A DNA stretch of 64,000 nt from an uncultured Clostridium sp. (GTDB lineage Bacteria > Bacillota > Clostridia > UBA1212 > UBA1255), in NCBI GenBank assembly GCA_900543695.1, contig UQSG01000005.1, positions 16,124 through 80,123 on the forward strand. Reading direction: 5' to 3'. This document shows positions 3,725 to 62,636 of the stretch, piece by piece. Below the pieces are notes generated by a model. That model saw nothing but the letters and a program-made list of their open reading frames with translations. It did no database searches and was not told the DNA's origin. The stretch's first letter is position 1; every line of letters starts with the position of its first letter. Made by a program: the position numbers and the translations under genes.

Positions 3725-4882
3725 TTATCCGATCTCGCCTTTTCTTCTCACCGTCAATGCGATGACAGCAGAAAGGAGTACGACAATCGCAAAGGCGACT
3801 GCGGCGATCTGTGCATCACCGGTCTCTGCAGGCGGCTCCGGATCAGAAGGGTTTGAAGGATCCGTCGGTTCAGAAGACTGTTCACCAAAGTCTGGGTTCA
3901 AAACTTCCGCAGGCGCATTGGCTTTCTCAGTGTAAAGCTGCATAGAAATACCTGCAGACGGATCTGCTGACGGAAGCACCGGGCCTCCTGCAAGCTGCCC
4001 TTCCGAATAAGTTTCCACGTCTATATCCATCGTAGAAACCACAAGCACCACATTGTTTTCACTCGCGCCATATTTTCCTTGGAAGCAAAGAACATATTCG
4101 CCTGCCGCAAGCGGCTCGTCGAATCTGACCAGATTGACATTGGCCTGACTGAGCGTATGCGTTTCCGTATAAATAGGCTCTCCCTCCAGGGAACCTGGAA
4201 TATCGCCATTGTAAGCATAGACGGAAATATCAATTTCAGGCTTCGCCGGATCGGCAACCCATGCGGGAATATTTAATGCCTGAATCGGAGTGTCACTGGA
4301 AAATGTCTGCGCGTAAAGCGCCTCCGGACCGTGAAACCAAAGCTGACCAAGACGATTGTCATCCGTAATGCTCATAACAGAAGAATTCGATACTACTTCC
4401 GAGCCCATTACAATTTCAAACTCTGCCGTTGCCAGAACCTCAAAACCGTTTGTCGCTCCGCTGAGATTATCGTCGCGGAACATAACAGCTCTATACTTCC
4501 CTTCCTTGATCTCCTTGGGGCTGATGAGCGCGTCGGTGCTCAGATCAACGATCGTGCCGTCCGGAACAACCAGTTCCTTATCGAGCTGATCACCGCTCTT
4601 TACATTCTGCGCATATACCCATCCGGAATTTTTTCCCTGATATAATGTCTTAGAATCCGTTTCGTTCAAATTCAGATCGGTCTCTGCAAAAATTCCGAGC
4701 CAAGTCTCATAAGTGGCCGCACCCGTGATTTTGGCCTTCAGGCTAATTGAGCCCGCGTCCGCTCTGACAACGGTTTTGCTAAGTATCAGTGTCGCTTCTC
4801 CGTCGGCAGAAACGGAAAGCACACCGATGCACATGCTTGCAGCGATTGCAAGAACTACAATGAAACACAGTACTCTTTTCAT
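3725..4882 (-). CDS. Cell-surface protein with N-terminal signal peptide and C-terminal TM anchor, function unknown
   Basis: N-terminus MKRVLCFIVVLAIAASMCIGVLSVSA. Tail: PSDPEPPAETGDAQIAAVAFAIVVLLSAVIALTVRRKGEIG. GGAGG RBS. Compositionally coding over 385 aa. Confidence 0.7.
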   Translation of the reverse strand: MKRVLCFIVVLAIAASMCIGVLSVSADGEATLILSKTVVRADAGSISLKAKITGAATYETWLGIFAETDLNLNETDSKTLYQGKNSGWVYAQNVKSGDQLDKELVVPDGTIVDLSTDALISPKEIKEGKYRAVMFRDDNLSGATNGFEVLATAEFEIVMGSEVVSNSSVMSITDDNRLGQLWFHGPEALYAQTFSSDTPIQALNIPAWVADPAKPEIDISVYAYNGDIPGSLEGEPIYTETHTLSQANVNLVRFDEPLAAGEYVLCFQGKYGASENNVVLVVSTMDIDVETYSEGQLAGGPVLPSADPSAGISMQLYTEKANAPAEVLNPDFGEQSSEPTDPSNPSDPEPPAETGDAQIAAVAFAIVVLLSAVIALTVRRKGEIG

Positions 4883-5044: not shown

Positions 5045-6028
5045 TTATTTTTTCTTTTTCTTTACTGCGATTCCCGCTACTGCGGCAATGATCACTATAA
5101 CGCCCACGACAATCAGAACAATCGCCCAGGTCGGAAATCCGCCTTCCGTATTGGAATCGGCCGCGGGAGACGTTGCGGCGGCCGGCTTCGGCGTTGCGGT
5201 TGCAGAAGAAGCCGTCTGAGATTCTGTCGGGGTCTCTGTCGCCTCAGGTGTCGGCGTCGCGCCGCCAACTTTATCCACTGCGCATCCGTCTGCTACAAGA
5301 TCATCCAGCGCAATTACCGCGCCTGATCCTCTGAGATCAAACCGTAATGCACTAAGCTGCGCAAATTCGACGCCGAATTCCGCTTTGCTGTCCGGAACAT
5401 ATTCTCCATCCAGGAAAAGGAAGCAGTCTGTTGACAAAGTCTCGCAGACAACAGCAACGGAATAAACACGCTCTGTTTCCAGCTCTGCGACAAGCGTATC
5501 TGCGAAATTATAAAGTCCGAGCGTTCCGTCAACATTTTTAAACGAAAGAATTGCTCCTTCTTCGCTTTCATTGTCCCTCTCAGGGGAATTCGTATCCGTA
5601 ATTTTAAAAGTAAATTTCCCGTCGGCAGGCATTGCGTCGATCCGGATTTTAAATTCTACGACATATGCATCGCCGTCAAACGGCGCCGCCTAGTCGATCG
5701 TCCATCTTCTGCCGTCCAGGAAATCTTTAATCATCAGAGACTGATCTCCGGAAATAGGATTTTCATTTGTGACCATCAAGAAGCTGCTGGCATTGCAGTA
5801 GGAAAAAAATCCGAAAGCGTCGCTTCCTGCAATCGTATACGGGTTGAAATCTCCCGTCGCATAATCCTCCATTGCTTCCAGATCTTCAAAATCCTGATAT
5901 ACTACGTCCGCAAGAAGATCTTCATACCGTTCGTATGTATAAGACTCATCCTCTGCTCCTACCGTCAGAATCCCCATCGCCGCAAGCAGCAGGGCGGCAC
6001 CGACGATGATAGCGCAAAATTTTTTCAT
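5045..6028 (-). pseudogene. Surface-protein gene (N-terminal signal peptide plus C-terminal TM/KKKKK anchor) interrupted by a single in-frame TAG at 5690-5692
   Basis: ORFs 5690..6028 and 5045..5632 are in the same frame. The 57 nt between them translate without stops (AAPFDGDAYVVEFKIRIDA). Only the fused product has both a signal peptide and the C-terminal anchor seen in paralogous-architecture proteins. Confidence 0.5.
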
Positions 6029-24734: not shown

Positions 24735-25640
24735 TCAGGCGTTGCTTCTTTTCTTGAGAAGCACTGTCGCCAGCACGGCGGCCATTGCGACTACAGCTGC
24801 AAAATACATTGTATCGCCTGTAGGCGTGTTCGGAGTAGAGGGCTCCGAAGGATCCTCCGTACCGGGATCTACCGGCGTTTCCGGATCCTCTTCCGCAACT
24901 GCCGCAACCTTAAAGTCATCAAAGTAAACGATGTCCAGCAGATTTTCAGGGGAATCCATTCCATGTCCGTCGATCCGGAAAGCGCTGAGCGACGTTAATT
25001 CTCCGGACGCAGCTCCAGCGCCATTTTCAAAGGAGCCAATTTTTTCATCGTCCAGATAAAGATCGTAATTTTTCGTTCCCAGCTCGAATACAGCCGTCAG
25101 AACATAGTCATGGTTCGTTTCCAGGCCGGACTTCGCAGCCGTTTCCACTCCGTTCTGATAACCATGCGCAACAATCTGCCCATTAACCTTCTTTATAGCC
25201 AGGAAATTCGGTGTCCAGGATTCAACATCCTTCCCTGTGCTCCCGACTGTCGCGGTAAAGCCGTAATCTCCAAGCTGCGCAATCCGAAACGTAAATTGCA
25301 GCGCAACATATTTCGTCTCCGCAGGATATGCGGAAGCGTCCACGTTTGCCCGGATATTTGTGGATTCGGATGTATCGGCCGCTCTGAAATAAGTAACCGA
25401 ATTGGTCCCTCCGACTCCATTTTCGACAATCTGAAGGCCGCCCCCCTCGCTTCCGCCTACAAAGAACGGAAATCCGGCAGGCTTCTCCGCGTCGAAAAAT
25501 TTATCGTCTGTCGCGTCAAAATCTTCAAAATCACAGCTGAATACCGGTTCCTCAAGATTCACTGCCGCGGCGAACGCCGGGACTGCCGACAGGGAAGCAA
25601 ACAGCATAACGGCCAGCAAACAAGAAATAAGCTTTTTCAT
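24735..25640 (-). CDS. Cell-surface protein with signal peptide and conserved C-terminal TGD-TM-KKR tail
   Basis: N-terminus MKKLISCLLAVMLFASLSAVPAFA. Tail: PNTPTGDTMYFAAVVAMAAVLATVLLKKRSNA. GAAGGAG RBS. Confidence 0.7.
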   Translation of the reverse strand: MKKLISCLLAVMLFASLSAVPAFAAAVNLEEPVFSCDFEDFDATDDKFFDAEKPAGFPFFVGGSEGGGLQIVENGVGGTNSVTYFRAADTSESTNIRANVDASAYPAETKYVALQFTFRIAQLGDYGFTATVGSTGKDVESWTPNFLAIKKVNGQIVAHGYQNGVETAAKSGLETNHDYVLTAVFELGTKNYDLYLDDEKIGSFENGAGAASGELTSLSAFRIDGHGMDSPENLLDIVYFDDFKVAAVAEEDPETPVDPGTEDPSEPSTPNTPTGDTMYFAAVVAMAAVLATVLLKKRSNA

Positions 25641-29030: not shown

Positions 29031-29705
29031 TTATTTTTCGATTTCTCTGTTGTTGTACATGGTTTTCAGCTCATCGAGCGGTTTTGCCATCAGATCCTTC
29101 ATCGGCTGCACATAATCGCCGCGCTCGATCTCCGCGACGCGTTTTTCGAGATGCTCTGATCTTGGCGCGAGATATTTTCCCGTCAGTCTTCTGGCAAGCA
29201 GCGCCACCTGCGGGTGGGAAATCTGCGCCGGGCAGCGCGAGGAGCAGATGCCGCACATCACGCAGTCAAACGATTCTTCTGCACATTTCGCATACTCGGC
29301 TCTCTGCGCGTATGCAATGTACTGCATTACGTTGAGCCCCTGCGTACAGCTCTTCGTACAGGCGTTGCACCCGATACAGCTGTAAATTTCCGGATAAAGC
29401 TGCATCATGATCTGCTCCGTAGGACGGATCTTCTCAATATCATACGTTTGCTTCACAACCGGAAAGAACGGAATCTGCGCCACATACATGTTTTCTTCGA
29501 CTTTCGTCTGGCAGGCAAGGCACACCTTGAGCTCCGGATCTCCTTTGATTCTGTATACCGAAGCGCAGGCGCCGCAAAAACCGTTTCTGCAGCCGCAGCC
29601 GCGCACCAGCTGGTAGCCGGCATATTCCATAGCATCCATGATGGTGAGTTCTGAGGGGACGGAATACTTTTTCCCCATGATAAATACGTTAACCATTTTT
29701 TCCAT
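29031..29705 (-). CDS. FrdB/SdhB-like iron-sulfur subunit (N-terminal 2Fe-2S ferredoxin domain plus two 4Fe-4S motifs)
   Basis: CGCRNGFCGACAS (2Fe-2S). CIGCNACTKSC and CVMCGICSSRCP (4Fe-4S). Confidence 0.75.
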   Translation of the reverse strand: MEKMVNVFIMGKKYSVPSELTIMDAMEYAGYQLVRGCGCRNGFCGACASVYRIKGDPELKVCLACQTKVEENMYVAQIPFFPVVKQTYDIEKIRPTEQIMMQLYPEIYSCIGCNACTKSCTQGLNVMQYIAYAQRAEYAKCAEESFDCVMCGICSSRCPAQISHPQVALLARRLTGKYLAPRSEHLEKRVAEIERGDYVQPMKDLMAKPLDELKTMYNNREIEK

Positions 29706-29737
29706 GTCTTTTTGCCTTCACTTTCTGTAAGAATCCA

Positions 29738-30565
29738 TTAATATTCGTTCGGGAGCTCGTCGAGCTGGTCGCAGCGGAATACCGGTCCGTCCTTACAGAC
29801 GTATTTCGATCCGATATTGCAGCGGCCGCATTTGCCGACGCCGCATTTCATGCGCAGTTCCATTGTTGTATAAACCTGCGTTTTGTCATACCCCATTTCC
29901 TGCAGCGAGGCCAGCGTAAACTTAATCATGATCGGAGGGCCGCAAAGCAGCGCCGTTTTGTGAACGTCGAAATTCAGTTCTTTCACATAAGCAGGAACAA
30001 AGCCCACGTGGCCGTCCCAGCCGTCCTGCGGACGGTCAATGGTGAGGTGAACATCCACATTTTCCGCGTGCGCCCACTCGTTGCGGATCTGATCAATATC
30101 TACAAGATCGTCTGCGGAGCGCGAGCCGTACACGATATCGATTTTACCGTAATCGCCGCGTTTCGCCAGGCAATAATCAATTACGGAGCGCAGCGGCGCA
30201 AGGCCGATTCCGCCTGCAATAAACAGTAAATCCTTTCCCTTCAGCGCCGTGTCAACGGGGAAAGCATGACCGTAGGGCCCGCGTATGGTGATCGCCTGAC
30301 CAACCTCCATCTGATGCAGCCATTCCGTAAAGCCGCCGCACCGCTTGATGCTGAATTCCATATACTCCCGGTTTGTCGGAGAAGACGTAATCGAAAACAT
30401 CGCCTCGCCGACGCCCGGCATTGAAAGCATCGCGCACTGGCCCGGCATGTGGTCGAAGCATTTTCCGCCTTCCGGCGCGTTCACCCGGAAGGTTTTCACG
30501 TCGGGCGTATCCGTGCGGATATCAGTTACGATTCCGATCTGCGGAATCAATACATCGGGATTCAT
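29738..30565 (-). CDS. FlxA-like NAD(P)H:FAD oxidoreductase with C-terminal 2Fe-2S (AsrB/HydG/PyrK family)
   Basis: Ferredoxin-reductase fold (RxYS-like MFSITS, GGIGLAPL). C-terminal CGVGKCGRC. Confidence 0.75.
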   Translation of the reverse strand: MNPDVLIPQIGIVTDIRTDTPDVKTFRVNAPEGGKCFDHMPGQCAMLSMPGVGEAMFSITSSPTNREYMEFSIKRCGGFTEWLHQMEVGQAITIRGPYGHAFPVDTALKGKDLLFIAGGIGLAPLRSVIDYCLAKRGDYGKIDIVYGSRSADDLVDIDQIRNEWAHAENVDVHLTIDRPQDGWDGHVGFVPAYVKELNFDVHKTALLCGPPIMIKFTLASLQEMGYDKTQVYTTMELRMKCGVGKCGRCNIGSKYVCKDGPVFRCDQLDELPNEY

Positions 30566-31614
30566 TTCGATTCACCTCCGAAGGATTTTATCACTTTTAC
30601 AATGTTCATGGACACCGGGCACTTGGAAAGACATCTGCCGCAGCCCACACAGGAGTACTCTCCGCCGTTGTTGGCCGGATAATAGACAAGCTTATGCATG
30701 AAGCGCTGGCGGAAGCGTTCGAGCTGACTCGTACGGGGATTGCCGTGCGCCATCTTTGTAAAATCGGAATACATGCAGGAATCCCAGCAGCGGAAGCGCT
30801 TGATTCCGTGTCCCGTGTCGAAATCACGAATATCGTAGCACTGACATGTCGGGCAGATAAAGGTACACGTTCCGCAGCCAATGCACGACTGATAGAGCTC
30901 CTGCCACTGCGGCGCGTAAAATACATCGTTCAGGCCCGTCGTCAGGCGGTCGCCGCTGAAATATTCCACGCTCAGTCCGCTGAGCGGCAGTCTGGCAAGA
31001 ATCGAGCGGATTTCTTCCTTTCGGTCCTCCAGGGCAGTCTCGTCCTTTTCAGACGCTTCCTCCAGAAGCGTTCCGAGCAGCTTCGTCAGCGCTTCTCCCT
31101 TTTCCGTTTCCGGGTTCCAATACAGCGCCGAATCCGTAAGCCACGTCGTTACGTCGCCTCCCGAGGGCTGCGCGGCGTCTATGCCGAATGTTCCGCAGAA
31201 GCACGTCTCTTCCGGCGCGCTGCACGCCATCGTTACGACGACGCCCGTTTCGCGGCGGCTTTGATAAAACGTATCTACGGGATCGCTGAGAAATACGGAA
31301 TCGAGGATTGCAAAGCTTTTTGCGTCGCAGGCGCGCACGCCGAATACCACAAAAGGCTCCGCCGGATCACGGTCCTCGACAAGATCAATATTCTTCCCGC
31401 TGACGCGGAAGGAAATCAGATTTTCGCTCTGTGGGAAAAACAGTTCTTTTGCCGATTTGACCGTATTGAGGCAATCCAGGCAGACTCTGCTTTCCGGCGT
31501 CCATTTTTCAAACAGGCACTGGCCCGCGTCCTCCACCGGCAGATACAGGCTTTTGACAGCCGATATCGCCGCATAAAGCTCCGGCAGGCGCTCTCTTGCT
31601 ATTTTATACATCAT
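30562..31614 (-). CDS. FlxB-like Fe-S protein (AsrA-type)
   Basis: 350 aa with CSAPEETCFCGTFG and two ferredoxin motifs (CIGCGTCTFICPTC, CVGCGRCLSKCP). ATGA-type overlap. Confidence 0.65.
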   Translation of the reverse strand: MMYKIARERLPELYAAISAVKSLYLPVEDAGQCLFEKWTPESRVCLDCLNTVKSAKELFFPQSENLISFRVSGKNIDLVEDRDPAEPFVVFGVRACDAKSFAILDSVFLSDPVDTFYQSRRETGVVVTMACSAPEETCFCGTFGIDAAQPSGGDVTTWLTDSALYWNPETEKGEALTKLLGTLLEEASEKDETALEDRKEEIRSILARLPLSGLSVEYFSGDRLTTGLNDVFYAPQWQELYQSCIGCGTCTFICPTCQCYDIRDFDTGHGIKRFRCWDSCMYSDFTKMAHGNPRTSQLERFRQRFMHKLVYYPANNGGEYSCVGCGRCLSKCPVSMNIVKVIKSFGGESK

Positions 31615-32609
31615 TTCTTCCCGCCTTTCTCATAGACAATACTCGGCTCCGCGTCCTGCTTCGTATAGGAAGTCAGCGGCGCTTCGATCGTTATGTCCGC
31701 CCCCGCCTGGTATTCTCCGTAAAGCTCATTGATATCTTTAATGAATTTTCGGTTAAGCAGGTGAAGCGGGATATTCTGCGGACAGACTCTCGTACATTCG
31801 CCGCAGTCCGTGCATCTTCCTGCTACGTGAAACGCGCGGATAATATGGAACAGATTTTCTTCGAAATCATCCGTATTCGCTTTGCTGGCGACGCCGGACT
31901 TCGGATTGTCAAATACGCACTGCACGCAGGAGCAGGCGGGGCAGATATTTCTGCACGCGTTGCAGCGGATGCAGCGGGAAAGCTCGTTTCTCCAGAAAGC
32001 GAAGCGTTCTTCTGCCGACAAATGCTCAAGATTTTCGATGTAGGCAAAGCGGCTTCCAAACTCCTGATTCGGAACGGCCTCCTCCGGTTCGTCCGCTTCA
32101 TCAGAAAGCGCGTCGTAAATCATATGCTTTTTACCCTTACAGGCTTTGCACTTTTCAAATAAAACGTCTTTTTTCGCACACGTCTTTTCTCCGTAGAGCG
32201 TTTCAAAAACGACCTGGTCCCCTTCAATTTTCGCTCCGGTAATTCCTCTTATGCCAAGTGCGCGCGCTGCCTCGGGATCTATCTTCCCACTGCAGGGAAC
32301 GCCCAGCACAAAAACGTTTTCCCTGCGGATTCTGTGCTCCTTCAGCAGCTGGTTGAACGAGTATGTATCGCAGGGCTTGAGCAGCGCTATGAGCTTTCCA
32401 TCCTTTTTGGATTCCGCGATGCAGTATTTGCTCTGGTTTGCAGCGCAGAAATCGTCATATATCATATTGTCCAGCGTTTCCTTTGTGAAAACGGCCGGAG
32501 TAACGTCGTAGCAAAACTCTCCGCTTTCCCAGGCCAGAACTCTGTCCGCCGCGCCGTCTTCCAGCAAAGAACGGCATTTCGATAAAATTTCCTCGCTTAT
32601 TCTTTGCAT
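31611..32609 (-). CDS. FlxC-like Cys-rich Fe-S protein
   Basis: Multiple Cys clusters: CIRCNACRNICPACSC, CTDCGECTRVCP, CKACKGKKH. Confidence 0.55.
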   Translation of the reverse strand: MQRISEEILSKCRSLLEDGAADRVLAWESGEFCYDVTPAVFTKETLDNMIYDDFCAANQSKYCIAESKKDGKLIALLKPCDTYSFNQLLKEHRIRRENVFVLGVPCSGKIDPEAARALGIRGITGAKIEGDQVVFETLYGEKTCAKKDVLFEKCKACKGKKHMIYDALSDEADEPEEAVPNQEFGSRFAYIENLEHLSAEERFAFWRNELSRCIRCNACRNICPACSCVQCVFDNPKSGVASKANTDDFEENLFHIIRAFHVAGRCTDCGECTRVCPQNIPLHLLNRKFIKDINELYGEYQAGADITIEAPLTSYTKQDAEPSIVYEKGGKK

Positions 32610-33043
32610 CTCAGATCCTCCAATTTCTTATTTTCACCCAAATTGTGGATAGTCGCTACAAATTCATTCATTGTGGCGGAAAATTTCGCGCCCTCCGCTG
32701 CGGAAATCCATTCCACTCTCGTGCGCTCCCTTTCGATGCCGAGAAAATCAAGCATACTGAACAGGAGCGTCATTCTCCTTCTCGCAAAGTAATTTCCGGA
32801 CGTATAATGGCAGTCGCCGGGATGGCATCCCGCAATGATCACGCCGTCCGCCCCTCTCTGAAAGGCTCGTAAAATAAACAGCGGATTTACGCGGCAGGAA
32901 CAAGGCACCCGGATGACCTTCACGTTCGCCGGATAGGAAAGCCGGCTTGAGCCCGCCAGGTCGGCGCCTGCGTAGCTGCACCAGTTGCAGCAGAACGCCA
33001 CAATCAGAGGCTTGAATTCATTTTTTGTTTCTTCTATCTGCAT
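32597..33043 (-). CDS. mvhD: MvhD/FlxD-type hydrogenase delta-subunit-like electron-transfer protein
   Basis: AFCCNWCSYAGAD...RVPCSCRVNP...GADGVIIAGCHPGDCHY is the MvhD/FlpD signature. 148 aa. Confidence 0.8.
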   Translation of the reverse strand: MQIEETKNEFKPLIVAFCCNWCSYAGADLAGSSRLSYPANVKVIRVPCSCRVNPLFILRAFQRGADGVIIAGCHPGDCHYTSGNYFARRRMTLLFSMLDFLGIERERTRVEWISAAEGAKFSATMNEFVATIHNLGENKKLEDLRCKE

Positions 33044-35034
33044 ATCGCATCAACCTCCGCCATAATTTGTCTTGTTGTAAAGCCCTTCAGATCCATTGCG
33101 CCGGACGGACACGTTACGGTGCAGGCGCCGCAGCCCTGACAGATCGCTTCGTTTACTCTCGCGATTCTGCGGACTTCCCTTCTTCCATGATCGTTGATCT
33201 CCTTATCTACATAATCGATCGCGCCGTAAGGACAGACGCTTGCGCACTGCGAGCAGCCGTTGCACAGCAGCTCGTCAGAGCCGGCCACACACGGATTGCA
33301 TGTCAGCTTATCTTTTGCCAGCAGTCCGATTACCTTTGCCGCGGCGGCGCTTGCCTGCGCGACGGTTTCCGGAATATCCTTCGGCCCCTGGCAGACGCCG
33401 GAAAGGTAGACGCCGGCTGTTGGGCTCTCAACCGGACGCAGCTTGGGATGCGCTTCCGTCAGGAAATTGTTCGTGTCAATGCTCGCCGTCAGCATCGTCG
33501 CCAGATTCTTAACGTCAGGATCCGGCTCGATCGCCGTGGCCAGGACCACCAGATCCGCTTCGATCAGGACCTGCTCGTTCGCAATGAGATCCGAGCCCTG
33601 TACCAGAAGCTTCCCGTCCTTCTCCGCAACCTTTCCGACCATGCCCTTTATGTAATCCACGCCGTATTCTTCTACTGCGCGGCGGTAAAACTCATCAAAG
33701 TTTTTGCCGGGCGTCCGCACGTCGATATAGAAAACGTGCACCTTCGTATCCGGATATTTGTCGCGGATCATCATCGCATGCTTTGCCGTATACATACAGC
33801 AGATTTTGGAGCAGTACGGCTTGCCGCAGCCGGAAATATCTCTCGAGCCCACGCACTGAATGAATACGATTTCATGCGGATGTGCGTGATCAGACGGGCG
33901 CAGCAGCACGCCCTTCGTCGGGCCGGCCGCGTTCATCAGGCGTTCGAGCTCCAGCGATGTAATGACATCTTTATTCTGCGCATATCCGAACTCTTCGAAA
34001 TTTTCCAGTGAAATCGGCCTGTAGCCCGTTGCCACGACAATGGCGCCGTATTCCCGTTCCACGATTTCCTCTTTTTGCGTAAAATCAATCGCTTTCGCCG
34101 TGCAGTTTCTCTCGCACAGTCCGCACTTGCCCGTTTTCAGTTTAATGCAGTGCTCGGGATCGATTACCGCAACGTTCGGGATTGCCTGGGCAAACGGGAT
34201 ATATACCGCGCCCCGGTTGTCGAGTCCCATGTTGAATTCATTCGGCGCCTTGCGGGACGGACATTTTTCCGTACAGACGCCGCAGCCGGTGCAAAGCTCG
34301 GTATTGATATACCTTGGCTTTTTCTTGATTTTCACCCTGAAATTCCCCACGAAGCCCGATACGCTTTCGATTTCGCTGTATGTAAAGAGATTGATTTTAT
34401 CATTCGCAGCGGCATCCACCATTTTGGGCGTCAAAATACATGCCGCGCAGTCGAGCGTCGGGAAGGTTTTATCCAGCTGCGCCATTTTTCCCCCGATCGT
34501 AGGCGATTTTTCCACAATATCGACTTCGTAGCCGGCGTCCGCAACGTCCAGCGCAGTCTGAATCCCTGCGATGCCGCCGCCGATCACAAGCGCCCGTTTT
34601 GTCACCGCGCTTTCTCCAGCCGTCAGAGGCTGATTTAAATTCAGCTTTGCAATCGCCGCTTTTGCAAGAATGATCGCCTTCTCCGTTCCCTCGTCCTTAT
34701 CCTTGTGAATCCAGGAGCACTGCTCTCTGATATTGGCGATCTCTACCATGTACGGGTTCAGTCCGGCAGCCTGCGCCGTCTTCCGGAACGTTGTCTCATG
34801 CATACGCGGAGAACAGGAGCAGACAACGATTCCCGTCAGGCCGTAATCATGGATCGCCTGCCGGATTCTGGACTGTCCGCCCTCCGAGCACATATACTGG
34901 TAATCCGTCGAGATCACGACACCCGGCTCGCCGGCTACACTTTGCGCCACTTTCTCCACATCTACGGTGCCTGCAATATTGCTGCCGCACCAACAAACAA
35001 ATACTCCGATCTTTTGCAATTTATTCACTTCCAA
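33034..35034 (-). CDS. hdrA: Heterodisulfide reductase subunit A (FAD, multi-Fe-S)
   Basis: N-terminal Cys domain FVCWCGSN...VVCSCSP. FAD motif LVIGGGIAGIQTALDVADAG. Inserted and C-terminal ferredoxin motifs (CTGCGVCTEKCP, CNGCSQCASVCP, CQGCGACTVTCP). 666 aa. Confidence 0.85.
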   Translation of the reverse strand: MEVNKLQKIGVFVCWCGSNIAGTVDVEKVAQSVAGEPGVVISTDYQYMCSEGGQSRIRQAIHDYGLTGIVVCSCSPRMHETTFRKTAQAAGLNPYMVEIANIREQCSWIHKDKDEGTEKAIILAKAAIAKLNLNQPLTAGESAVTKRALVIGGGIAGIQTALDVADAGYEVDIVEKSPTIGGKMAQLDKTFPTLDCAACILTPKMVDAAANDKINLFTYSEIESVSGFVGNFRVKIKKKPRYINTELCTGCGVCTEKCPSRKAPNEFNMGLDNRGAVYIPFAQAIPNVAVIDPEHCIKLKTGKCGLCERNCTAKAIDFTQKEEIVEREYGAIVVATGYRPISLENFEEFGYAQNKDVITSLELERLMNAAGPTKGVLLRPSDHAHPHEIVFIQCVGSRDISGCGKPYCSKICCMYTAKHAMMIRDKYPDTKVHVFYIDVRTPGKNFDEFYRRAVEEYGVDYIKGMVGKVAEKDGKLLVQGSDLIANEQVLIEADLVVLATAIEPDPDVKNLATMLTASIDTNNFLTEAHPKLRPVESPTAGVYLSGVCQGPKDIPETVAQASAAAAKVIGLLAKDKLTCNPCVAGSDELLCNGCSQCASVCPYGAIDYVDKEINDHGRREVRRIARVNEAICQGCGACTVTCPSGAMDLKGFTTRQIMAEVDAICR

Positions 35035-35046
35035 TCTTTGCCGCTG

Positions 35047-47527: not shown

Positions 47528-48559
47528 TTAAACTCTCGCATTTTTCTTTTTGAGGACTACCGTTGCAAGAACAGCAGCCATCGCCACGACAACAGCAAGA
47601 TAAGAGGCGTCGCCCGTATCGGTGTTCTGCTCATTATCATTATCGTTATTATTACCATCGTTGTCGTTTCCGCCCTCGGTGTCAAGAACCGGAGCCGTAA
47701 CGTCTTCTGCGCTTCCGGTCGTAAGGGCGAAGAAGTTGACAACCTTAGAATCCTTGGTAATCGCACGGATATATAATGTTTCCATATCCGCCGTGCCGGC
47801 AATGGTAATATCGAAGCCCGCAGTGGAATGGCCGCTTTCATAAGGCATTCCGGCGGCAGTAACATCGTCTCTTGCCGAAATCGTGCAGGACGTTACATCT
47901 CTCCACGTTTCGCCGTCTGTGCTGTACTGATATTTTTCAATACCGTTTTCTGCAGCGACCCATCCGGAAATTCCGGTATCCTGTCCAAACGTATAATCAC
48001 CCTGTACGGCAAATTCGGTTCCGCCAAGGGGCGCGTTGGCCGGCGCGCTGCCGCCGATGGAATCGATGCTCATCTGGAAATCGGCTTCCTCCGTATAAAC
48101 CGTCGTATCAACGGTGGAATCCGCTGTGATTTCAAACTCGAAAGGATCGATGCCGGCTACCGGCTCATATCCGCCGTTGTCAAGCACAACCGCATAATAT
48201 TTGCCCGGCTTCAGCATAGAATTCGGATTGAGCTCCGCAACTCTGTTGCCTGCGGAATTTCCGCCTTCGCCGATCGATGTATCCGCAGCGGCCTTGTCCT
48301 CCGGCCAGTTAACCGTTTTTGTAGTATCGTTGATATACCACCAAATAAGCGACGTAACGGTGCCTTCGCCCTCGCCGTATTGTTCTCCTTCCTTATAGAT
48401 GCCGACCCAGTCCAGCTCGTCGGTCTCGCCGGAAACCGTCACCGTAAATTCAGCGCCGTCAACCGTTACTTCAATCCCTGCCGCCTGTACAGCCAGCATG
48501 CTCATTGCAGAGATGGCCAGCGCAGCTACAAGAACCAACGCCATGATTTTTTTCTTCAT
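47528..48559 (-). CDS. Cell-surface protein with signal peptide and conserved C-terminal TGD-TM-KKK tail
   Basis: N-terminus MKKKIMALVLVAALAISAMSMLAVQA. Asn/Asp-rich linker. Tail: NTDTGDASYLAVVVAMAAVLATVVLKKKNARV. Confidence 0.7.
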   Translation of the reverse strand: MKKKIMALVLVAALAISAMSMLAVQAAGIEVTVDGAEFTVTVSGETDELDWVGIYKEGEQYGEGEGTVTSLIWWYINDTTKTVNWPEDKAAADTSIGEGGNSAGNRVAELNPNSMLKPGKYYAVVLDNGGYEPVAGIDPFEFEITADSTVDTTVYTEEADFQMSIDSIGGSAPANAPLGGTEFAVQGDYTFGQDTGISGWVAAENGIEKYQYSTDGETWRDVTSCTISARDDVTAAGMPYESGHSTAGFDITIAGTADMETLYIRAITKDSKVVNFFALTTGSAEDVTAPVLDTEGGNDNDGNNNDNDNEQNTDTGDASYLAVVVAMAAVLATVVLKKKNARV

Positions 48560-56207: not shown

Positions 56208-57434
56208 ATGCGCAAATGTTCTTCCCTTTTTACCCGTATCTTTACGGTCGCGGCAGCCGCCGTCCTGCTGCTTAGCTGCGTTCCCGTAAGCGTCGGCGCC
56301 GCTAAGACGAAGCTGTATGTTTTTAACTGCGGAGATTATATTGCGGATACAACAATCGAAAAATTCGAAACGGCATATCCGGAATATGAAGTCGTGTATG
56401 AGGTTTTCGACACAAATGAGGCAATGTATCAAAAGCTTGTCAGCAGCAACATTCCGTATGACGTACTGATTCCTTCTGACTACATGATCGAACGTTTGAT
56501 CAAGGAAAACCGTCTGAAGGAAATCGATATGACGCAGCTGGAAAACTACCATTATATTGGGGAGGCGTATAAGAATACAAGCTATGATCCCGAAAATAAA
56601 TATTCCGTTCCGTATATGTGGGGTACGCTCGGCATTCTCTATAATAAAGAAAAGGTCGATGATGTCGTTGATAGCTGGTCCATTCTCTGGAACGAAAAAT
56701 ATAAAGGACAGATTCTGATGCTTGATTCCATGCGCGATTCCATGGCGGTGGCGCTGGAAAAGCTCGGTTACAGTATGAATACGACGAATGAGGCGGAGAT
56801 CAATGCAGCGGCGCAGGCTTTAATCGAGCAGAAGCCTTTGGTCGCCGAATATGGCGTCGATATTCTGAAGGACAAAATGATTCAGGGCTCCTATGCGTTT
56901 ACGGTCGCTTATTCCGGCGACGCGCTGTATATGCAGAATCAAAACGCTGAGCTGAACGGAGGAGAATCCGTTCTGGAATACGTAATTCCGAAGGAAGGCA
57001 GCAATTTCTGGATCGATGCGATGTGCATTCCTACGACAAGCCAGAATACGGAAGGCGCCATGAAATTTATCGATTTTATGTGCTCGACGGAAATTGCTTT
57101 TGACAACGTCGAATACATTGAATATTCTACGCCGCACACAGAGGCTTTGCAGCAGCTCGGCGAGGAATATATCAATAACGCCATTTATAATCCATCTGCC
57201 GAAATTCTGGAAAACTGCGATTCGTTCTATTATCTGGAGCCGGAAGTACAGGAGCTTTACAATAAAGCCTGGGAATCCGTGCGTCTGGCCTCTGCGACGC
57301 AGACAGAATCGGATTCCGACGGCGGAAGCTGGAAGCTGATCGCCGGGATCGCCGCGGGCGTTGTGATTATTGCACTAATAATTGTTTTCGTTCTATACAA
57401 AAAGAAAATGAACCGCATTAAGTACGAAGAGTAG
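56208..57434 (+). CDS. potD: Spermidine/putrescine-binding protein carrying an additional C-terminal TM anchor
   Basis: Signal/lipobox LLLSCVP and a PotD/PotF-like fold. C-terminal DGGSWKLIAGIAAGVVIIALIIVFVLYKKKMNRIKYEE. Confidence 0.8.
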   Translation: MRKCSSLFTRIFTVAAAAVLLLSCVPVSVGAAKTKLYVFNCGDYIADTTIEKFETAYPEYEVVYEVFDTNEAMYQKLVSSNIPYDVLIPSDYMIERLIKENRLKEIDMTQLENYHYIGEAYKNTSYDPENKYSVPYMWGTLGILYNKEKVDDVVDSWSILWNEKYKGQILMLDSMRDSMAVALEKLGYSMNTTNEAEINAAAQALIEQKPLVAEYGVDILKDKMIQGSYAFTVAYSGDALYMQNQNAELNGGESVLEYVIPKEGSNFWIDAMCIPTTSQNTEGAMKFIDFMCSTEIAFDNVEYIEYSTPHTEALQQLGEEYINNAIYNPSAEILENCDSFYYLEPEVQELYNKAWESVRLASATQTESDSDGGSWKLIAGIAAGVVIIALIIVFVLYKKKMNRIKYEE

Positions 57435-57662: not shown

Positions 57663-59489
57663 TCAGTTATTCCACGGGATCGGATTTCCCTCGCTGAAGT
57701 ACGATACGCCAAGTTCCCCACAGTCATTGTTAAACTCTGCAGAGAGCGCCTCGTAATTTTCCTCGTCCGCAAACTCGCCGCGCTTTGCAAGCATTTTGTA
57801 ATACCGGTACTGCAATTCAGACCTCCGAACATGAAGGAGCGCCGTTTCGTTATCCTCAGCGGCGGCAACCGCATCTGCCCACAAGGCATCCAGCTCCGGC
57901 AGCATTTCATCCGTAATCAGTCCCTGGAAAATATCAACCGCATTGGAAACAAGATTGAATTCTCTGTTATGATCCAGCACCAGGCTGTGAATGATATCCA
58001 GGTATTCTCCTACCTTTGCTCCACCTTCGCCGTAATACGCGTTCAGGAATTCCTGTTTGTGTTGCTCCAGATCGGTGTAAGGATCCCACAAGAGCTTGGC
58101 AAGAAGATAAGAACGCAGCATGCCAAACTCTCCGCTGACGGGATCCTGATAATTGCCCTGAGCAAAAACGCCCTTGATTCCCTTTTCATAGAAATACTGC
58201 GCGTTTTTCTGGAGACGCTCCATATTAGGCATGGGGCACAGATATTGCGCAAAATTTGTCGTATAATCCCATACATACAAATTAAAGCCTGCTTCCAGCC
58301 ACTTCTCTATGTTCTCTACTGCGGAAGCATTCGCCGGGCACTCCGTAAGCGCATGCGGCGCGCAGCTGCTGATGCAGTACCGCACAATCACGTTTTCCGC
58401 AGGCTTCAGGTTGCGCGGAGGCAGAGCAGAGAATTGATAGGCAAGCGTCTCAAAAATCACATCCGGGAATTCATCCTTCAATTCCTCCGCCACGCGGTTC
58501 ACAAACCAGATCAGCGTTCCGGAATAGGAACGTTCCTCCCGGTTGATCTGTTTGCAATTTTCACACGTGCAGTACGATTCAATAACGTAGCTGTCGTTCT
58601 GGGAAATGGGGACGACCTTTGAATCAGGATGCTCCTTCATCCATTCGCGGATCTGATTGACAACGATCTGGAAGACGTCCTCATTAGTAAGACACAGCTG
58701 ACTGTACAGGAATTCAGAGGTTCTTTTCCCATTAATTTCCGAAAAATACTCAGGATGGCTTTCAAAATACTTGTCCACAGGCACCAGCATTTCAAAATTA
58801 TGCACGTGCTGCGGCCCTGCGTTTGAAATTCCGCCGCCCCACTCCGGCGAAATCGATCTGCCCAGAGTTCTGTTGAACAGATTGAAGCAGCTGTTCACGC
58901 GCTGTTTTACGCTCCATTCCTCATCAAAGGCGCACGCCCAGAAAACATCGCGGAAGGAAAAAGCAGGTCTCTGGCTGTCGCGGTAATCAGGATCCAGCAA
59001 AATCGTTTCCATCTTCGGCACTGTTTCGCAGTCGGGAGCAAAGAAGCGGCAGCCCAGCGACTCCAGAAAACCGTACACGCCGTAAAGCGTTCCTCTTCCG
59101 CTGCCGCCTGCAATGACAAGGGTGAAATCCTTCATCTGGACGGTGTAACCCTCTTCTCCCATCCATTCCCAGTCAAAATCACCGTATACATCCCGCGCGG
59201 TTTGTCCAATTACAATTTCATGTCCGGACGGCGCGGATGTATCATCCGTTATTTCCAGAGAGCAGCCTGATATCGATTTGATATATTTTTTCAGCTCATT
59301 CGCCGCCGTTACCTCGGAAGCCTCCGCCTCCGAGGACAGCACGATCTGATATTTGCTCATTTCGTCTTTTACGAGTAAGTTCCTGCCATTTTCCTGATCC
59401 GGCAAGCTGCTCGGGTCTTTACATCCGTTCATTATTCCGCACACTCCAATCAGTATTATCGCTAGAATCCACAAAATATGACGTTTCAT
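57663..59489 (-). CDS. DUF4838-type (glycoside-hydrolase-like) secreted/lipoprotein
   Basis: Signal ILWILAIILIGVCGIMNGC. 608 aa. Resemblance to DUF4838-type glycosidase family members judged from overall pattern only. Overlaps the downstream gene by 4 nt. Confidence 0.5.
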   Translation of the reverse strand: MKRHILWILAIILIGVCGIMNGCKDPSSLPDQENGRNLLVKDEMSKYQIVLSSEAEASEVTAANELKKYIKSISGCSLEITDDTSAPSGHEIVIGQTARDVYGDFDWEWMGEEGYTVQMKDFTLVIAGGSGRGTLYGVYGFLESLGCRFFAPDCETVPKMETILLDPDYRDSQRPAFSFRDVFWACAFDEEWSVKQRVNSCFNLFNRTLGRSISPEWGGGISNAGPQHVHNFEMLVPVDKYFESHPEYFSEINGKRTSEFLYSQLCLTNEDVFQIVVNQIREWMKEHPDSKVVPISQNDSYVIESYCTCENCKQINREERSYSGTLIWFVNRVAEELKDEFPDVIFETLAYQFSALPPRNLKPAENVIVRYCISSCAPHALTECPANASAVENIEKWLEAGFNLYVWDYTTNFAQYLCPMPNMERLQKNAQYFYEKGIKGVFAQGNYQDPVSGEFGMLRSYLLAKLLWDPYTDLEQHKQEFLNAYYGEGGAKVGEYLDIIHSLVLDHNREFNLVSNAVDIFQGLITDEMLPELDALWADAVAAAEDNETALLHVRRSELQYRYYKMLAKRGEFADEENYEALSAEFNNDCGELGVSYFSEGNPIPWNN

Positions 59490-60583
59490 GATTTCGACTT
59501 TCCTTTTTTTCTGACGACGGCAATTACAACGATCAGAACGACGATAACAGCTGCGCCTGCGGCAATTCCGATGATCAGACCGGTGTGATCTGATTTATCC
59601 GTTCCATCTGTAGTTCCCTGAGCTGCAGCTCCCGTCTTGCGCGGTGTCGTCGGCTTGCTGGTCTCAGAGGTTGTTTCCGGAGTCGCTTCCGGAGTTGCAT
59701 CTGCCGTCTCAGCCGGCGTTGGCTGCGGCTCTTCTGTCGCGTCGGGTGTTGTAAAGCTTAAAGAAACGTTTCTAAAGTCCGCGCTGATATCTCTGACCGC
59801 GACGCCGGCAAAAAAGTTTTCGGCTACCAGACGCGCTTTATCAGTCTTGAAAAGCTCGTTGCCCTGGGCGTCCTTCACTGTAGCGGTTTTATAATATGTA
59901 AAGTCCAGATATTCAAAAATTTCCGTATCAAAATCTTCTTCATATTCTCCCGCATCTGCCATCTCAACCGTTGCAAGCAGCGCGTCATTTACATATACTT
60001 CCGCCTTTTGTCCGTCGTCCTTGATGCGGATCGGCACGAATTTCTGCCAATCAATGCCCTCGATCATAAAGTCGTGATAAACGGAAGAAATTCCCCATGT
60101 GCTGTCGCTGTCCTGCGTCTTAATCGACAGCCGGATGCCGCCCTCGATCGGCGACAGCACGATACCCGTCGCACCGATTGACGACATTTCACCCTGACCG
60201 CCCTTCTCTACGTGGAAATCCCATTCATACAAGGCAAAAATATTACCCGTGCGGAAGCAGACGCCGATGTTCGTGCTCAGGCTGTTGGTTCTCAGATCCG
60301 CGGTAAATTCGCTGGGAGACGTAATCTCGTCATAAGAAAGAATCGCGTACAATCCGCCCAGTTCAATATATTTTCCTTCCTCGTCTTCTTCAACCCGCCC
60401 ATACGAGGTGGCATTCGCGCCCTTCGGCTCCCACCAGGAAGCAAAATCCGCAGTTTCCATTAAATCTGTACCGGCTTCATCTTCTTCGATGCCCCCGGTC
60501 TGAACCGTCTCTGCAAAAACGGTTCCCGTACCGATCAAAACGGCCAGCAGAAGAGCCGTAAATAAAAAGGTCAATTTTTTCAT
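59486..60583 (-). CDS. Surface protein (paralog 1 of a pair) with signal peptide and C-terminal TM/RKKGKSKS anchor
   Basis: Shares conserved blocks with the 61614 gene: F(R/I)TG(N/D)(I/V)F(A/N)LYEWDF(H/Y)(V/A)EKGG and YYKTA(T/V)VKDA(Q/S)G(N/T)ELF(K/R)TD. Confidence 0.7.
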   Translation of the reverse strand: MKKLTFLFTALLLAVLIGTGTVFAETVQTGGIEEDEAGTDLMETADFASWWEPKGANATSYGRVEEDEEGKYIELGGLYAILSYDEITSPSEFTADLRTNSLSTNIGVCFRTGNIFALYEWDFHVEKGGQGEMSSIGATGIVLSPIEGGIRLSIKTQDSDSTWGISSVYHDFMIEGIDWQKFVPIRIKDDGQKAEVYVNDALLATVEMADAGEYEEDFDTEIFEYLDFTYYKTATVKDAQGNELFKTDKARLVAENFFAGVAVRDISADFRNVSLSFTTPDATEEPQPTPAETADATPEATPETTSETSKPTTPRKTGAAAQGTTDGTDKSDHTGLIIGIAAGAAVIVVLIVVIAVVRKKGKSKS

Positions 60584-61613: not shown

Positions 61614-62636
61614 TTATAAACGAGCCTTCCGTCTCAGCGCTTTCGCTGAAACCGCTGACAGAAGCGCGGCTAAGCAGAGGATCGATATGCTCAGATCTCC
61701 TGTGCCAGGATTCGGATCGGCCGGCTCAGGATCTGTAGGCTCCGGATCCGTCGGTTCAGGATCAACCGGCTCCGGATCTGTCGGTTCCTCTTCCTCTCCG
61801 GAAATCGAAATATTATCGATATCGATAGCATTTTCCCGCACTCCGAACCCAAGGTAGCAGTCTTCCGCCGCAACGCGCGCACTGTCAGTACGGAAGAGCT
61901 CGGTTCCAGACGCATCTTTTACAACGGCAGTCTTATAATATACGCCTTCTAAGTATTCCGGAATTTCCGTTGCGGCGTCCTCCGGGTACGTTCCCTCATT
62001 AGAAAGCTCCACAGTAGCCGCAAGCGCGTCTTCGACGTAAATTTTGACAACGGAGCCGTCGTCCTCCACCTTCAGCGTCGTAAATTCTTTCCAGTCCGGA
62101 TTCCCTTCTACCACGATATCCGCATAGGCGCAGCTGGTGCCCCAGGGGCCCTCCGCTCTTGTTTTCACCGCAAGGCGGATTCCGTCGATTACGGGATAAA
62201 TGACGATCCCGACTGCACCGATCGAAGAGCTGCCCTCCATTCCGCCCTTTTCTGCATAGAAATCCCATTCGTAGAGATTAAACACATCGCCCGTTCTGAT
62301 GAAAACGCCCAGCCAGTCCGCCTTCGGCGTTTCCGTTCTGAGATCGACGGAAAAGGTATACGGCGCATCTACGGTTTTTGCGGACTGAAGCTCCAGCAGG
62401 CCAGACGCGTTCAGATAACGGTTTCCTTCTTCTTCCGCAATTACGCTTGCCGCTTCGCCCTGTCCGTTCTTCTCCACCCAGTCTTTTGAAAAAATTTCTG
62501 TGTTGTTGGAAATGGTCCCGACGGTTTCCTCTTCAAAGCTGCCGTCTCCGGTCAATGCAGCGGCGCTGACCGCTCCTCCCACGCAGAACATGCTCAGCAG
62601 GCACAGGAGCAATCCAACGCAAATTGTCTTCTTCAT
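61614..62636 (-). CDS. Surface protein (paralog 2) with PEPxD tandem repeats, TGD motif and C-terminal TM/RRKARL anchor
   Basis: PEPVDPEPTDPEPTDPEPADPNPGTGDLSISILCLAALLSAVSAKALRRKARL tail. Encoded by a 15-nt-period DNA repeat at about 61720-61800. Confidence 0.7.
   Translation of the reverse strand: MKKTICVGLLLCLLSMFCVGGAVSAAALTGDGSFEEETVGTISNNTEIFSKDWVEKNGQGEAASVIAEEEGNRYLNASGLLELQSAKTVDAPYTFSVDLRTETPKADWLGVFIRTGDVFNLYEWDFYAEKGGMEGSSSIGAVGIVIYPVIDGIRLAVKTRAEGPWGTSCAYADIVVEGNPDWKEFTTLKVEDDGSVVKIYVEDALAATVELSNEGTYPEDAATEIPEYLEGVYYKTAVVKDASGTELFRTDSARVAAEDCYLGFGVRENAIDIDNISISGEEEEPTDPEPVDPEPTDPEPTDPEPADPNPGTGDLSISILCLAALLSAVSAKALRRKARL

Follow-up and report, generated by a model that had tools for sequence, protein, structure and literature searches.

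Seven proteins encoded in a 64,000-nucleotide stretch of DNA, here called the window, end in a hydrophobic segment followed by a cluster of basic residues. Do these tails merely hold the proteins in the membrane, or do they mark them for sorting at the cell surface, and if so, by which system? An earlier note on this DNA suggested that they might be a C-terminal sorting signal of an uncharacterised kind. The host is an uncultured human-gut Clostridia bacterium of the GTDB order UBA1212; its lineage (UBA1212/UBA1255/UMGS1537) is uncultured but abundant, and occurs in the human and chicken gut. Literature on this lineage yielded taxonomy only.

Two classes of C-terminal tail

Translation confirmed that all seven quoted tails are present at the genes to which they had been assigned (genes are named below by their first coordinate). 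The tails fall into two classes, four with a motif and three without. The short motif that all seven were thought to share is thus real, as TGD, in the tails of 3725, 24735, 47528, and 61614, but missing from those of 5045, 59486, and the PotD-like 56208. In the first four, the sequence [N/P]-x-x-T-G-D lies 28-32 residues from the C-terminus, ahead of a hydrophobic helix that leads into a Lys/Arg tail. The individual motifs read NTPTGD (24735), NTDTGD (47528), NPGTGD (61614), and PAETGD (3725). Asn occupies P4 in three of the four; P3 is Thr in 24735 and 47528, Pro in 61614, and Ala in 3725, so that the P4-P3 pairs are NT, NT, NP, and PA, none being the canonical Leu-Pro.

The tripeptide TGD occurs 10 times among the 19,455 residues of the window proteins, and 4 of the 10 sit directly before a C-terminal helix, 28-32 residues from the end; this placement is therefore not a matter of chance. 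Simple arithmetic from the TGD counts gives P ~1e-8 for such a placement in four of the eight tail-bearing proteins, the eighth TM/basic tail being that of a D-Ala-D-Ala carboxypeptidase (48779-50098).

On inspection of the sequence, the proteins of 3725, 24735, 47528, and 61614 have hydrophobic N-termini with Ala-x-Ala-like ends, by which all four qualify as carrying a predicted N-terminal Sec signal peptide. The claim that all seven proteins have a signal peptide stands for these four and fails for ORF 5045-5632, which has none of its own. This strain has an in-frame TAG that splits a gene for 329 aa (5045-6028), and the ORF is its 3' part.

The motif-bearing tails and their conservation

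Gene 24735 (24735..25640, minus strand) encodes a secreted protein of 301 aa comprising a signal peptide, a ConA-like lectin/glucanase jelly-roll domain, an acidic Pro-rich linker, and the NTPTGD tail. Positions 24735-24840 translate to residues 267-301 plus the stop codon (...STPNTPTGDTMYFAAVVAMAAVLATVLLKKRSNA*). Its AF2 model has a pLDDT of 73, with core blocks mostly at 75-95, and Foldseek searches with this model returned lectin, CBM40, and PL7 folds. At least this one of the four proteins is thus predicted to adopt a ConA-like lectin fold; in public MAGs it is labelled 'hypothetical protein'.

Residues 249-270 (24831..24896, minus strand) form a Pro/Asp/Glu/Thr-rich linker predicted by AF2 to be disordered, with pLDDT below 50 over residues 252-288. 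Both length and sequence of the linker differ between homologues, and it is likely a wall-spanning spacer. Next come the motif N-T-P-T-G-D (residues 271-276; 24813..24830, minus strand), the hydrophobic helix YFAAVVAMAAVLATVLL (residues 279-295; 24756..24806, minus strand), which AF2 predicts as helical over residues 279-300, and the basic tail KKRSNA (24738..24755, minus strand), ahead of the stop codon at 24735-24737. In eight homologues with 28-60% identity, T274, G275, and D276 are invariant while the linkers vary. We propose that NTPTGD may be recognised by a sortase, which would cut between Thr274 and Gly275.

The other three motif-bearing tails are likewise encoded on the minus strand. 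Gene 47528 (47528-48559) specifies a 343-aa secreted protein ending in NTDTGD-ASYLAVVVAMAAVLATVVL-KKKNARV (47531..47626), and its orthologues retain the tail in Ca. Egerieisoma faecipullorum (L011) and, as NTNTGD, in the Clostridia MAG HGM11336 (L010). The 340-aa secreted protein of gene 61614 (61614-62636) ends in NPGTGD-LSISILCLAALLSAVSAKAL-RRKARL (61617..61712); in orthologues with 63-67% identity, N-P-G-[T/S]-G-D is fixed and the helix sequence is freely variable, and an NPSTGD variant is present within the species. The tail PAETGD-AQIAAVAFAIVVLLSAVIALTV-RRKGEIG (3728..3832) of the 385-aa secreted protein of gene 3725 (3725-4882) was assessed within this genome, where linker and tail resemble those of 61614 (BLASTP E=3.6e-6).

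Across 23 compiled tails, P1' is always Gly and P2' always Asp, P1 is Thr in 22 and Ser in one, and P4 is Asn in 16 and Leu in three. P3 is mainly Pro or Thr, Pro accounting for 11 of the 23. Every one of the 23 has a Lys/Arg cluster, and in all of them the motif Thr is placed 27-33 residues before the C-terminus.

Selection on the tails of 24735 and 47528

From the Asn onward, the tails of 24735 and 47528 are identical at 21 of 30 residues, including an 11-residue core, VVAMAAVLATV. The same core is found in homologues P0124 and P0141 and in the L011 orthologue; that of the L010 orthologue, VIAMAAVLATV, differs by one residue. As many as 16 of the 21 identical residues are specified by different codons, and synonymous sites are almost saturated. 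Because most synonymous sites differ, the amino-acid sequence of the tail is under purifying selection. This, together with the invariance of T-G-D across divergent homologues, bears out the suggestion that the tail is selected in its own right. Recent duplication or gene conversion of the two tails was considered and ruled out by the codon differences.

A profile of the two tails run against a database of 5.8 billion proteins gave 16 word candidates, none of which scored. A tail alignment searched against GTDB genomes confirmed no more than two loci, each encoding an orthologue of the 47528 protein; the VVAMAAVLATV tail therefore appears confined to this small lineage and two passenger families.

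Tails without the motif

The three remaining tails contain no TGD; before the helix they read NTEGGFPTW (5045), SDHTGLIIG (59486), and SDGGSWK (56208). The tail SDHTGLIIGIAAG...RKKGKSKS (59489..59593, minus strand) belongs to a 365-aa protein (gene 59486-60583) that is a paralogue of the 61614 protein (41% identity, E=6e-73). Its orthologues have DHTG, NGAS, PNTA, GGVN, or GNTV at the corresponding place, with no residues conserved; DHTG as a degenerate TG motif was ruled out, as the orthologues do not keep it. The tail NTEGGFPTWAIVLIVVG...KKKKK (5048..5152, minus strand) of gene 5045 ends a paralogue of the 24735 protein (BLASTP E=1.8e-5). Its FPTW sequence recurs on homologue P0136, and its sole HMM match covers the TM part. 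The tail SDGGSWKLIAGIAAG...YKKKMNRIKYEE (57315..57431, plus strand) belongs to a PotD-like solute-binding protein (gene 56208-57434) that matches PotD and SBP families, and it matches tail models at the TM level only.

Because the orthologues of 59486 conserve no motif, the tails of 5045, 59486, and 56208 look like ordinary, uncleaved stop-transfer membrane anchors. Plain anchors lacking a conserved motif, the outcome that the earlier note had set against its own proposal, are thus what three of the seven tails appear to be. Since the paralogues of 5045 and 59486 carry TGD tails, paralogue pairs in this genome would use two alternative modes of anchoring.

Scores against curated sorting-signal models

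We compared the tails with curated NCBIfam models, chiefly TIGR01167 (LPXTG_anchor, cut-off 15.9 bits) and NF033846 ('NPXTG-anchored protein', cut-off 23.5 bits). Taken alone, the 3725 tail passed TIGR01167 with 16.6 bits; 24735 and 47528 scored 14.8 and 14.2 bits, and 61614 gave no match. Six of seven homologue TGD tails tested in isolation were above this cut-off, at 16.6-21.5 bits. All window tails stayed below the NF033846 cut-off (47528, 18.2 bits; 61614, 14.8; 3725, 8.8; 24735, no match). Among homologue tails, P0137 passed it with 28.4 bits and P0124 reached 21.0. The same model aligned weakly, below its cut-off, to tails lacking the motif, namely that of 59486 (13.5 bits) and the SNTGLIIG tail of homologue P0131 (20.6 bits). 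As full-length proteins, the window members matched neither TIGR01167 nor NF033846; full-length 61614 did match NF053819, a family of sortase-dependent surface proteins, but below threshold.

The comparison with CTERM models that the earlier note had called for gave no match above threshold, for window or homologue tails, to PEP-CTERM, GlyGly-CTERM, PGF-CTERM, Firmicu-CTERM, Synerg-CTERM, Loki/Heimdall-CTERM, or GGIII-like models. Hits at E<=10 were sub-threshold and at the level of TM composition (PGF-CTERM, 7.0; GG_III-CTERM, 13-14.5; Loki-CTERM, 11.8).

Search for a sortase

As the earlier note had stated, the window holds no sortase: Pfam annotation of nearly all of its genes found none, and a TLxTC regular expression gave no candidate. 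None was found in the ~92 kb of contiguous genome extending from 18.9 kb before the window to 8.6 kb beyond it, and the fetched flanks of homologues in other species contained neither PF04203 nor a TLxTC-type ORF. Pfam scans of the unannotated window genes for a processing enzyme returned housekeeping functions and two proteins of unknown function, a lipoprotein (6142-6939) and a protein of 546 aa.

A canonical signal, LPGTGD, is found at the end (...GLPGTGDSSNMMLWVALLFVSGGILGAVTYRKKRKSK) of a 2049-aa dockerin/cohesin/Flg_new protein encoded ~7 kb upstream of the window; in strain or species variants it reads LPETGD or LQGTGD. The C-terminal 730-aa fragment of this protein scored 17.5 bits with TIGR01167. 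A canonical sortase substrate in the genome indirectly supports the presence of a sortase. The possibility that the tails match an already described sorting domain, which the earlier note had named as telling against novelty, is therefore what we found: homologue tails pass the NF033846 and TIGR01167 cut-offs, the genome encodes an LPGTGD signal, and the layout is that of class B.

Probable sortase-type sorting signals and the alternatives

We consider it likely that the TGD tails of genes 3725-4882, 24735-25640, 47528-48559, and 61614-62636 act as cell-wall sorting signals of the sortase type, within the LPXTG superfamily, on Sec-exported surface proteins, and that the other three tails are uncleaved stop-transfer anchors. 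This reading rests on the conserved motif, the geometry of the tails and the selection acting on them, their similarity to models, and the genome's own canonical LPXTG signal; from these we infer that a sortase exists, where it cuts, and that the proteins become linked to the wall. An exported protein would be held in the membrane by its helix and basic tail until a membrane-bound cysteine transpeptidase, the sortase, cut between Thr and Gly. The Thr carboxyl would then be coupled to the peptidoglycan cross-bridge, and the acidic Pro-rich linker would span the wall. The P4 Asn and P2' Asp suggest a class B-like specificity for the presumed enzyme. Judging from the aligned tails, the recognition sequence typical of the lineage would be (P)-[N/L/P]-[P/T/A]-x-T-G-D. 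The proposal of an uncharacterised sorting signal thus survives in part: a sorting signal is the most likely function, but its motif and spacing, like its helix and basic tail, match those of sortase signals, and the tails are most likely a variant of the known LPXTG/NPXTG signal and no new sorting system.

Several observations count against this reading. No sortase turned up in the window, the ~92 kb around it, or the other fetched flanks; the window's tails all fall short of the NF033846 cut-off, a single one passes that of TIGR01167, and neither model recognises the full-length proteins; three of the four tails have Thr or Ala at P3 where Pro is usual, and C. difficile SrtB left a non-Pro motif uncleaved in vitro; and the constraint on the VVAMAAVLATV helix exceeds what a generic sortase signal requires. 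The TGD tails might instead be permanent, uncleaved type I anchors in which T-G-D acts as a helix-capping or juxtamembrane element, for instance in contact with a partner membrane protein, and serves no protease or transpeptidase. Conservation of the helix across unrelated passengers and genera would suit a helix that stays in the membrane and makes contacts there, the plain-TM paralogues show that these families do use membrane anchoring, and neither the window nor any fetched flank contains a sortase. We nevertheless regard this explanation as improbable. In the 61614 family it is the helix that is free and NPG[T/S]GD that is fixed, the pattern of an enzyme recognition site; moreover, the spacing between motif and C-terminus, 27-33 residues, is typical of sortase signals, the tails match LPXTG and NPXTG models, and the canonical LPGTGD signal in the genome has the same TGD core. 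A further possibility, tentative and rather unlikely as judged from the tail sequences, reconciles the helix with the sortase-type reading: N-T-x-T-G-D tails with the conserved helix (Y[LF]xVVVAMAAVLATVV) could be served by a sortase of their own, specific to the lineage, class B-like but tolerant of Thr at P3, separate from the LPGTGD enzyme, and guided to these tails in part by contacts between helices within the membrane. If true, this would account for the constancy of the helix across passengers and genera despite saturated synonymous sites, and the tails would form, within an uncultured Clostridia order, a class of sortase signals with a new specificity.

That the TGD tails belong instead to a new system served by a non-sortase enzyme, in the manner of PEP-CTERM with exosortase or GlyGly-CTERM with rhombosortase, seems to us highly improbable. 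The host's uncultured order, the failure of curated models to recognise the full-length proteins, their annotation as hypothetical, and the lack of a sortase in the window and examined flanks would all suit such a system. Yet x-x-x-T-G, the acidic P2', the helix, the basic tail, and the spacing all match sortase signals, LPGTGD and LPETGD in the same genome grade continuously into the N-x-x-TGD forms, and none of the examined loci has a candidate processing enzyme linked to it. It is barely credible that all seven tails form one family, with NTEGG, DHTG, and SDGG as degenerate versions of one signal. NTEGG does look like NT[PD]TG with Gly for Thr, and NF033846 aligns to the 59486 and P0131 tails; however, all these scores are under the cut-off, the 59486 orthologues conserve neither T-G nor any other motif, and in the tails of 5045 and PotD the HMM matches span the TM/basic part only.

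The sortase-type reading leaves the known picture of protein sorting in Gram-positive bacteria unchanged. What the locus adds is a set of paralogue pairs that would differ mainly in their mode of anchoring, covalently to the wall or in the membrane, and a helix that is unusually constrained in sequence for part of a sorting signal. The TGD-tail proteins escape both curated anchor models and public annotation, in which all are labelled 'hypothetical'; wall-anchored lectin-like proteins are therefore under-counted in surface-proteome predictions for this lineage. The remedy would be to include N-[PT]-x-T-G-D tails in the seed alignments.

Comparison with known sorting systems

The four TGD tails differ from plain type I stop-transfer anchors by an invariant motif at a fixed distance; the three other tails resemble such anchors in having a helix and basic cluster without a conserved upstream motif. 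With canonical LPXTG signals (TIGR01167/PF00746), the substrates of class A sortases, the window tails share the tripartite architecture, the spacing, and a T-G-D/E core, but they have Asn-Thr, Asn-Pro, or Pro-Ala in place of Leu-Pro. Streptococcal surface proteins offer a precedent for similar anchor sequences on unrelated passengers within one lineage. The LAXTG signals of class E sortases in Actinobacteria share a non-Pro P3, Ala, with the PAETGD of 3725; this is a resemblance only, as P4 is Leu there and Pro in 3725, and the present host is a member of the Clostridia.

Class B sortases 'target ... variations of NPXTG or NPQTN' (PMC11987632). The C. difficile SrtB cuts PVPPKTGDS and SDSPKTGDN between T and G, and left the non-Pro motif NVQTG uncleaved in vitro (PMC4155245). 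Class B signals (B. anthracis IsdC DNPKTGDE, C. difficile (S/P)PxTGD, NF033846) differ from the window tails in having Pro at P3, where 24735 and 47528 have Thr and 3725 has Ala. Their passengers differ too, being NEAT/haem or known adhesin domains as against small ConA-like and other uncharacterised domains in the window. Both groups share Asn (or Pro/Ser) at P4, the Thr-Gly scissile pair, Asp at P2', a helix of ~17-22 residues with a Lys/Arg tail, and a Pro/acidic linker ahead of the signal on proteins bearing signal peptides; 61614 fits NPXTG exactly, and one homologue tail exceeds the NF033846 cut-off. For B. anthracis SrtB, the P2' Asp of DNPKTGDE is required for full activity (PMC11987632), and by analogy the P2' Asp of the window tails may contribute to recognition.

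Results

Translating the genes named in the earlier note reproduced all seven of the tails it had quoted. The short motif they were said to share is real for four of these proteins (named by gene start in the window), in which TGD stands directly before the helix: PPAETGD in 3725, NTPTGD in 24735, NTDTGD in 47528 and NPGTGD in 61614. It was overstated for the other three, whose tails lack T-G-D (NTEGGFPTW in 5045, SDHTGLIIG in 59486 and SDGGSWK in the PotD-type protein 56208). Of the 10 TGD tripeptides in the window's proteins (19,455 residues in total), four lie 28-32 residues from the C-terminus; from the TGD counts, the chance probability of four C-terminal TGDs was estimated at ~1e-8. The tails of 3725 and 61614 resemble each other (E=3.6e-6). 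Around the proposed Thr|Gly cleavage site in a compiled set of 23 TGD tails, P1' Gly and P2' Asp are present in all 23, P1 is Thr in 22 and Ser in one, P3 is Pro in 11 and Thr in seven, and P4 is Asn in 16 and Leu in three, with the motif Thr always 27-33 residues from the C-terminus. When all likely genes were put through a simple scan, a single further TM/basic tail came up, belonging to a D-Ala-D-Ala carboxypeptidase (48779-50098, Peptidase_S11).

Minus-strand positions 24735-24840 translate into the final 35 residues and stop codon of a 301-aa protein. Its signal peptide and globular domain are followed by an acidic Pro-rich linker (residues about 249-270), the motif N271-T-P-T-G-D276, a helix (residues 279-295, YFAAVVAMAAVLATVLL) and the basic tail KKRSNA. 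An AlphaFold2 model based on an alignment of 8 sequences (mean pLDDT 73; core blocks mostly 75-95) predicts a β-jelly roll, then disorder in the linker (252-278) and a helix at the C-terminal end (279-300). Searched against the PDB with Foldseek, the model matched ConA-like lectin/glucanase folds (E ~1e-7, probability 1.0), including glucuronan and alginate lyases, sialidase CBM40, calreticulin and legume lectins. The family is small, with 19 representatives in an exhaustive HMMER search. Across 8 homologues (28-60% identity) the only C-terminal invariants are T274, G275, D276, one linker Pro and one tail Lys; the motif-region consensus is P-N-x-x-T-G-D-[S/T], the linker differs in both length and sequence, and other homologues repeatedly carry a second subtype of tail, …AF[VI]ALRKKAY. 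Two distant members of the ConA-like family, P0129 and P0132, end in ...KKKGCGGTVASG...KKKK or ...KEKSGCGSIIGGG...KKRK, with Gly-Cys-Gly immediately before the helix; these tails matched no model and could represent another anchoring or lipidation-type tail.

A paralogue of the 24735 protein is encoded at 5045-6028 (minus strand). ORF 5045-5632 is not a stand-alone gene; together with 5690-6028 it forms one 329-aa surface-protein gene, intact in other strains; here Gln113 of the intact allele P0093 is replaced by an in-frame TAG. The resulting fragments of 112 aa and 195 aa are both present on about 20 independent contigs, which shows that the nonsense allele is in circulation in the population. 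The product of 6142-6939 (plus strand), which adjoins the two surface-protein genes, matches no Pfam family; it is a predicted lipoprotein (…LLTASVSC…) whose linker is rich in Pro and Ser.

The tails of 24735 and 47528 have 21 of 30 residues in common; beyond the tail, the passenger domains are not significantly similar. Recent copying as the origin of this near-identity is ruled out by the different codons at 16 of the 21 identical residues. The helix core VVAMAAVLATV is also found in P0124 and P0141, homologues only about 40% identical to the 24735 protein, and is kept in the 47528 orthologue of Ca. Egerieisoma faecipullorum; the orthologue in MAG HGM11336 has VIAMAAVLATV, a single substitution. 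Because codons differ and the core recurs in divergent homologues and orthologues, the tail is selected as protein sequence, as the earlier note had proposed. Among strain variants of the 47528 protein (342-347 aa; P0031-P0044), N and D runs of the Asn/Asp-rich linker (~47627-47700, minus strand) grow and shrink while the NTDTGD tail is unchanged. The gene lies in a block (42652-50098) that is syntenic across genera (L010/L011) and comprises the carboxypeptidase with its C-terminal TM, the NTDTGD protein, a UvrD-like helicase, an NAGPA phosphodiester glycosidase and a 546-aa membrane-anchored protein with no Pfam match (42652-44292).

The 61614 and 59486 proteins are paralogues (41% identity, E=6e-73), and a profile search with the pair separated two orthologue groups. 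All 61614 orthologues (63-67% identity) carry N-P-G-[T/S]-G-D followed by freely differing helices, whereas 59486 orthologues have no conserved pre-helix residues (DHTG, NGAS, PNTA, GGVN, GNTV). One paralogue is thus marked by a fixed motif with a free helix and the other by absence of a motif. Across species the gene order is ceramidase-like, 61614 homologue, AraC regulator, 59486 homologue (the TM-anchored paralogue) and DUF4838/GH67N-like, a block found at 57663-63927 and, in other species of the lineage, at L069/L070. This conserved order suggests a single unit for glycan utilisation whose two lectin-like proteins are anchored in different ways; judged by fold and context, small glycan-binding surface proteins would be the most plausible function. 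The PotD-type solute-binding protein (56208-57434, plus strand) combines an N-terminal signal bearing a lipobox-like LLSC with a C-terminal TM helix and basic tail, a mode of tethering unusual for an ABC-transporter binding protein in a Firmicute.

The left flank was extended through contigs bearing window gene 1049-1927, and a metagenome scan added locus L015. A gene there (L015:6044-12193, plus strand; also in L012-L014), in the same genome as the window and ending about 6.7 kb short of its first position, encodes a 2049-aa protein with Dockerin_1, Flg_new (Listeria-Bacteroides repeat), Cohesin and Glucodextran_B-like domains. It terminates in ...DAG-LPGTGD-SSNMMLWVALLFVSGGILGAVTYRKKRKSK, with LPETGD and LQGTGD variants (L017, L020), and passes TIGR01167 (LPXTG_anchor; cutoff 15.9 bits) with 17.5 bits in its C-terminal 730-aa fragment and 21.9 bits for the tail alone. 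The organism therefore has a sortase signal of orthodox type, built like the window's TGD tails from a TGD core, a helix and a basic tail. One possible role for the protein is that of a scaffoldin, anchored to the wall, in a cellulosome- or mucinolysome-like system of this uncultured lineage.

Labelled hypothetical in public records, the tail proteins gave zero matches at full length to CTERM or anchor tail-domain models; the one related match was sub-threshold, 61614 reaching 24 bits against NF053819, a sortase-dependent surface-protein family with a cutoff of 47. As isolated queries, the 3725 tail passed TIGR01167 (16.6 bits), as did six of seven homologue TGD tails (16.6-21.5 bits), and those of 24735 (14.8) and 47528 (14.2) fell just below. 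Against NF033846 (NPXTG-anchored; cutoff 23.5 bits), the P0137 tail scored 28.4, P0124 21.0, 47528 18.2 and 61614 14.8 bits. None came near PEP-CTERM, GlyGly-CTERM, PGF-CTERM, Firmicu-CTERM or similar models.

Window GC is 50.4%. Proteins at least 90% identical to the window's occur in MAGs labelled 'Clostridiales bacterium' and 'Candidatus Egerieisoma faecipullorum', and identical copies on many human-gut metagenome contigs, which places the source organism, on protein identity, in or near the genus of the latter. That genus corresponds to GTDB order UBA1212, family UBA1255, genus UMGS1537, represented by MAGs only (PMC8035907). A minus-strand cluster at 29031-36243 (HdrA-like Pyr_redox_2/Fer4, MvhD-like FlpD, HdrB-like CCG-domain, Fer4 and FAD_binding_2 proteins) adjoins genes for fumarate hydratase, malate/lactate dehydrogenase and an Asp-Al_Ex transporter. 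The set suggests an electron-bifurcating module of heterodisulfide-reductase-like type, tied to fumarate or aspartate metabolism.

Discussion

The proposal that these tails are a sorting signal under selection was right. The four TGD tails are probably sortase-type wall sorting signals, in an N-[P/T]-x-T-G-D version that most resembles class B and that current models under-detect, and we infer that they are cleaved and the proteins attached to the wall. Pfam annotation and a regular-expression search agree with the earlier note that the window holds no sortase, and none was found in about 92 kb of contiguous genome including the window or in homologue neighbourhoods of other species. Since the genes for housekeeping sortases usually lie apart from those of their substrates, this negative is uninformative. 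That the TGD tails instead hold the proteins permanently in the membrane, the conserved motif being a juxtamembrane one, is unlikely.

In Gram-positive sorting signals, anchor regions are commonly homogeneous lineage-wide across unrelated surface proteins. The helix and tail conservation seen here is notable, beyond what such homogeneity fully explains. The most novel interpretation, a sortase specificity class dedicated to these tails in which the conserved helix is read as well, is rather unlikely. A truly new processing system is very improbable. The view of the signal as uncharacterised was not borne out, for the isolated tails match LPXTG/NPXTG models and parallels with class B sortases are published. 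These enzymes 'target ... variations of NPXTG or NPQTN', and full activity of B. anthracis SrtB requires the P2' Asp in DNPKTGDE (PMC11987632). In PVPPKTGDS and SDSPKTGDN, C. difficile SrtB cuts the T-G bond, and does so better when the native downstream residues are present (PMC4155245). Class B (NPXTG) signals are the closest likeness of the window's N-[P/T]-x-T-G-D tails, and the N-x-x-TGD tails grade into the orthodox LPGTGD signal of the 2049-aa protein.
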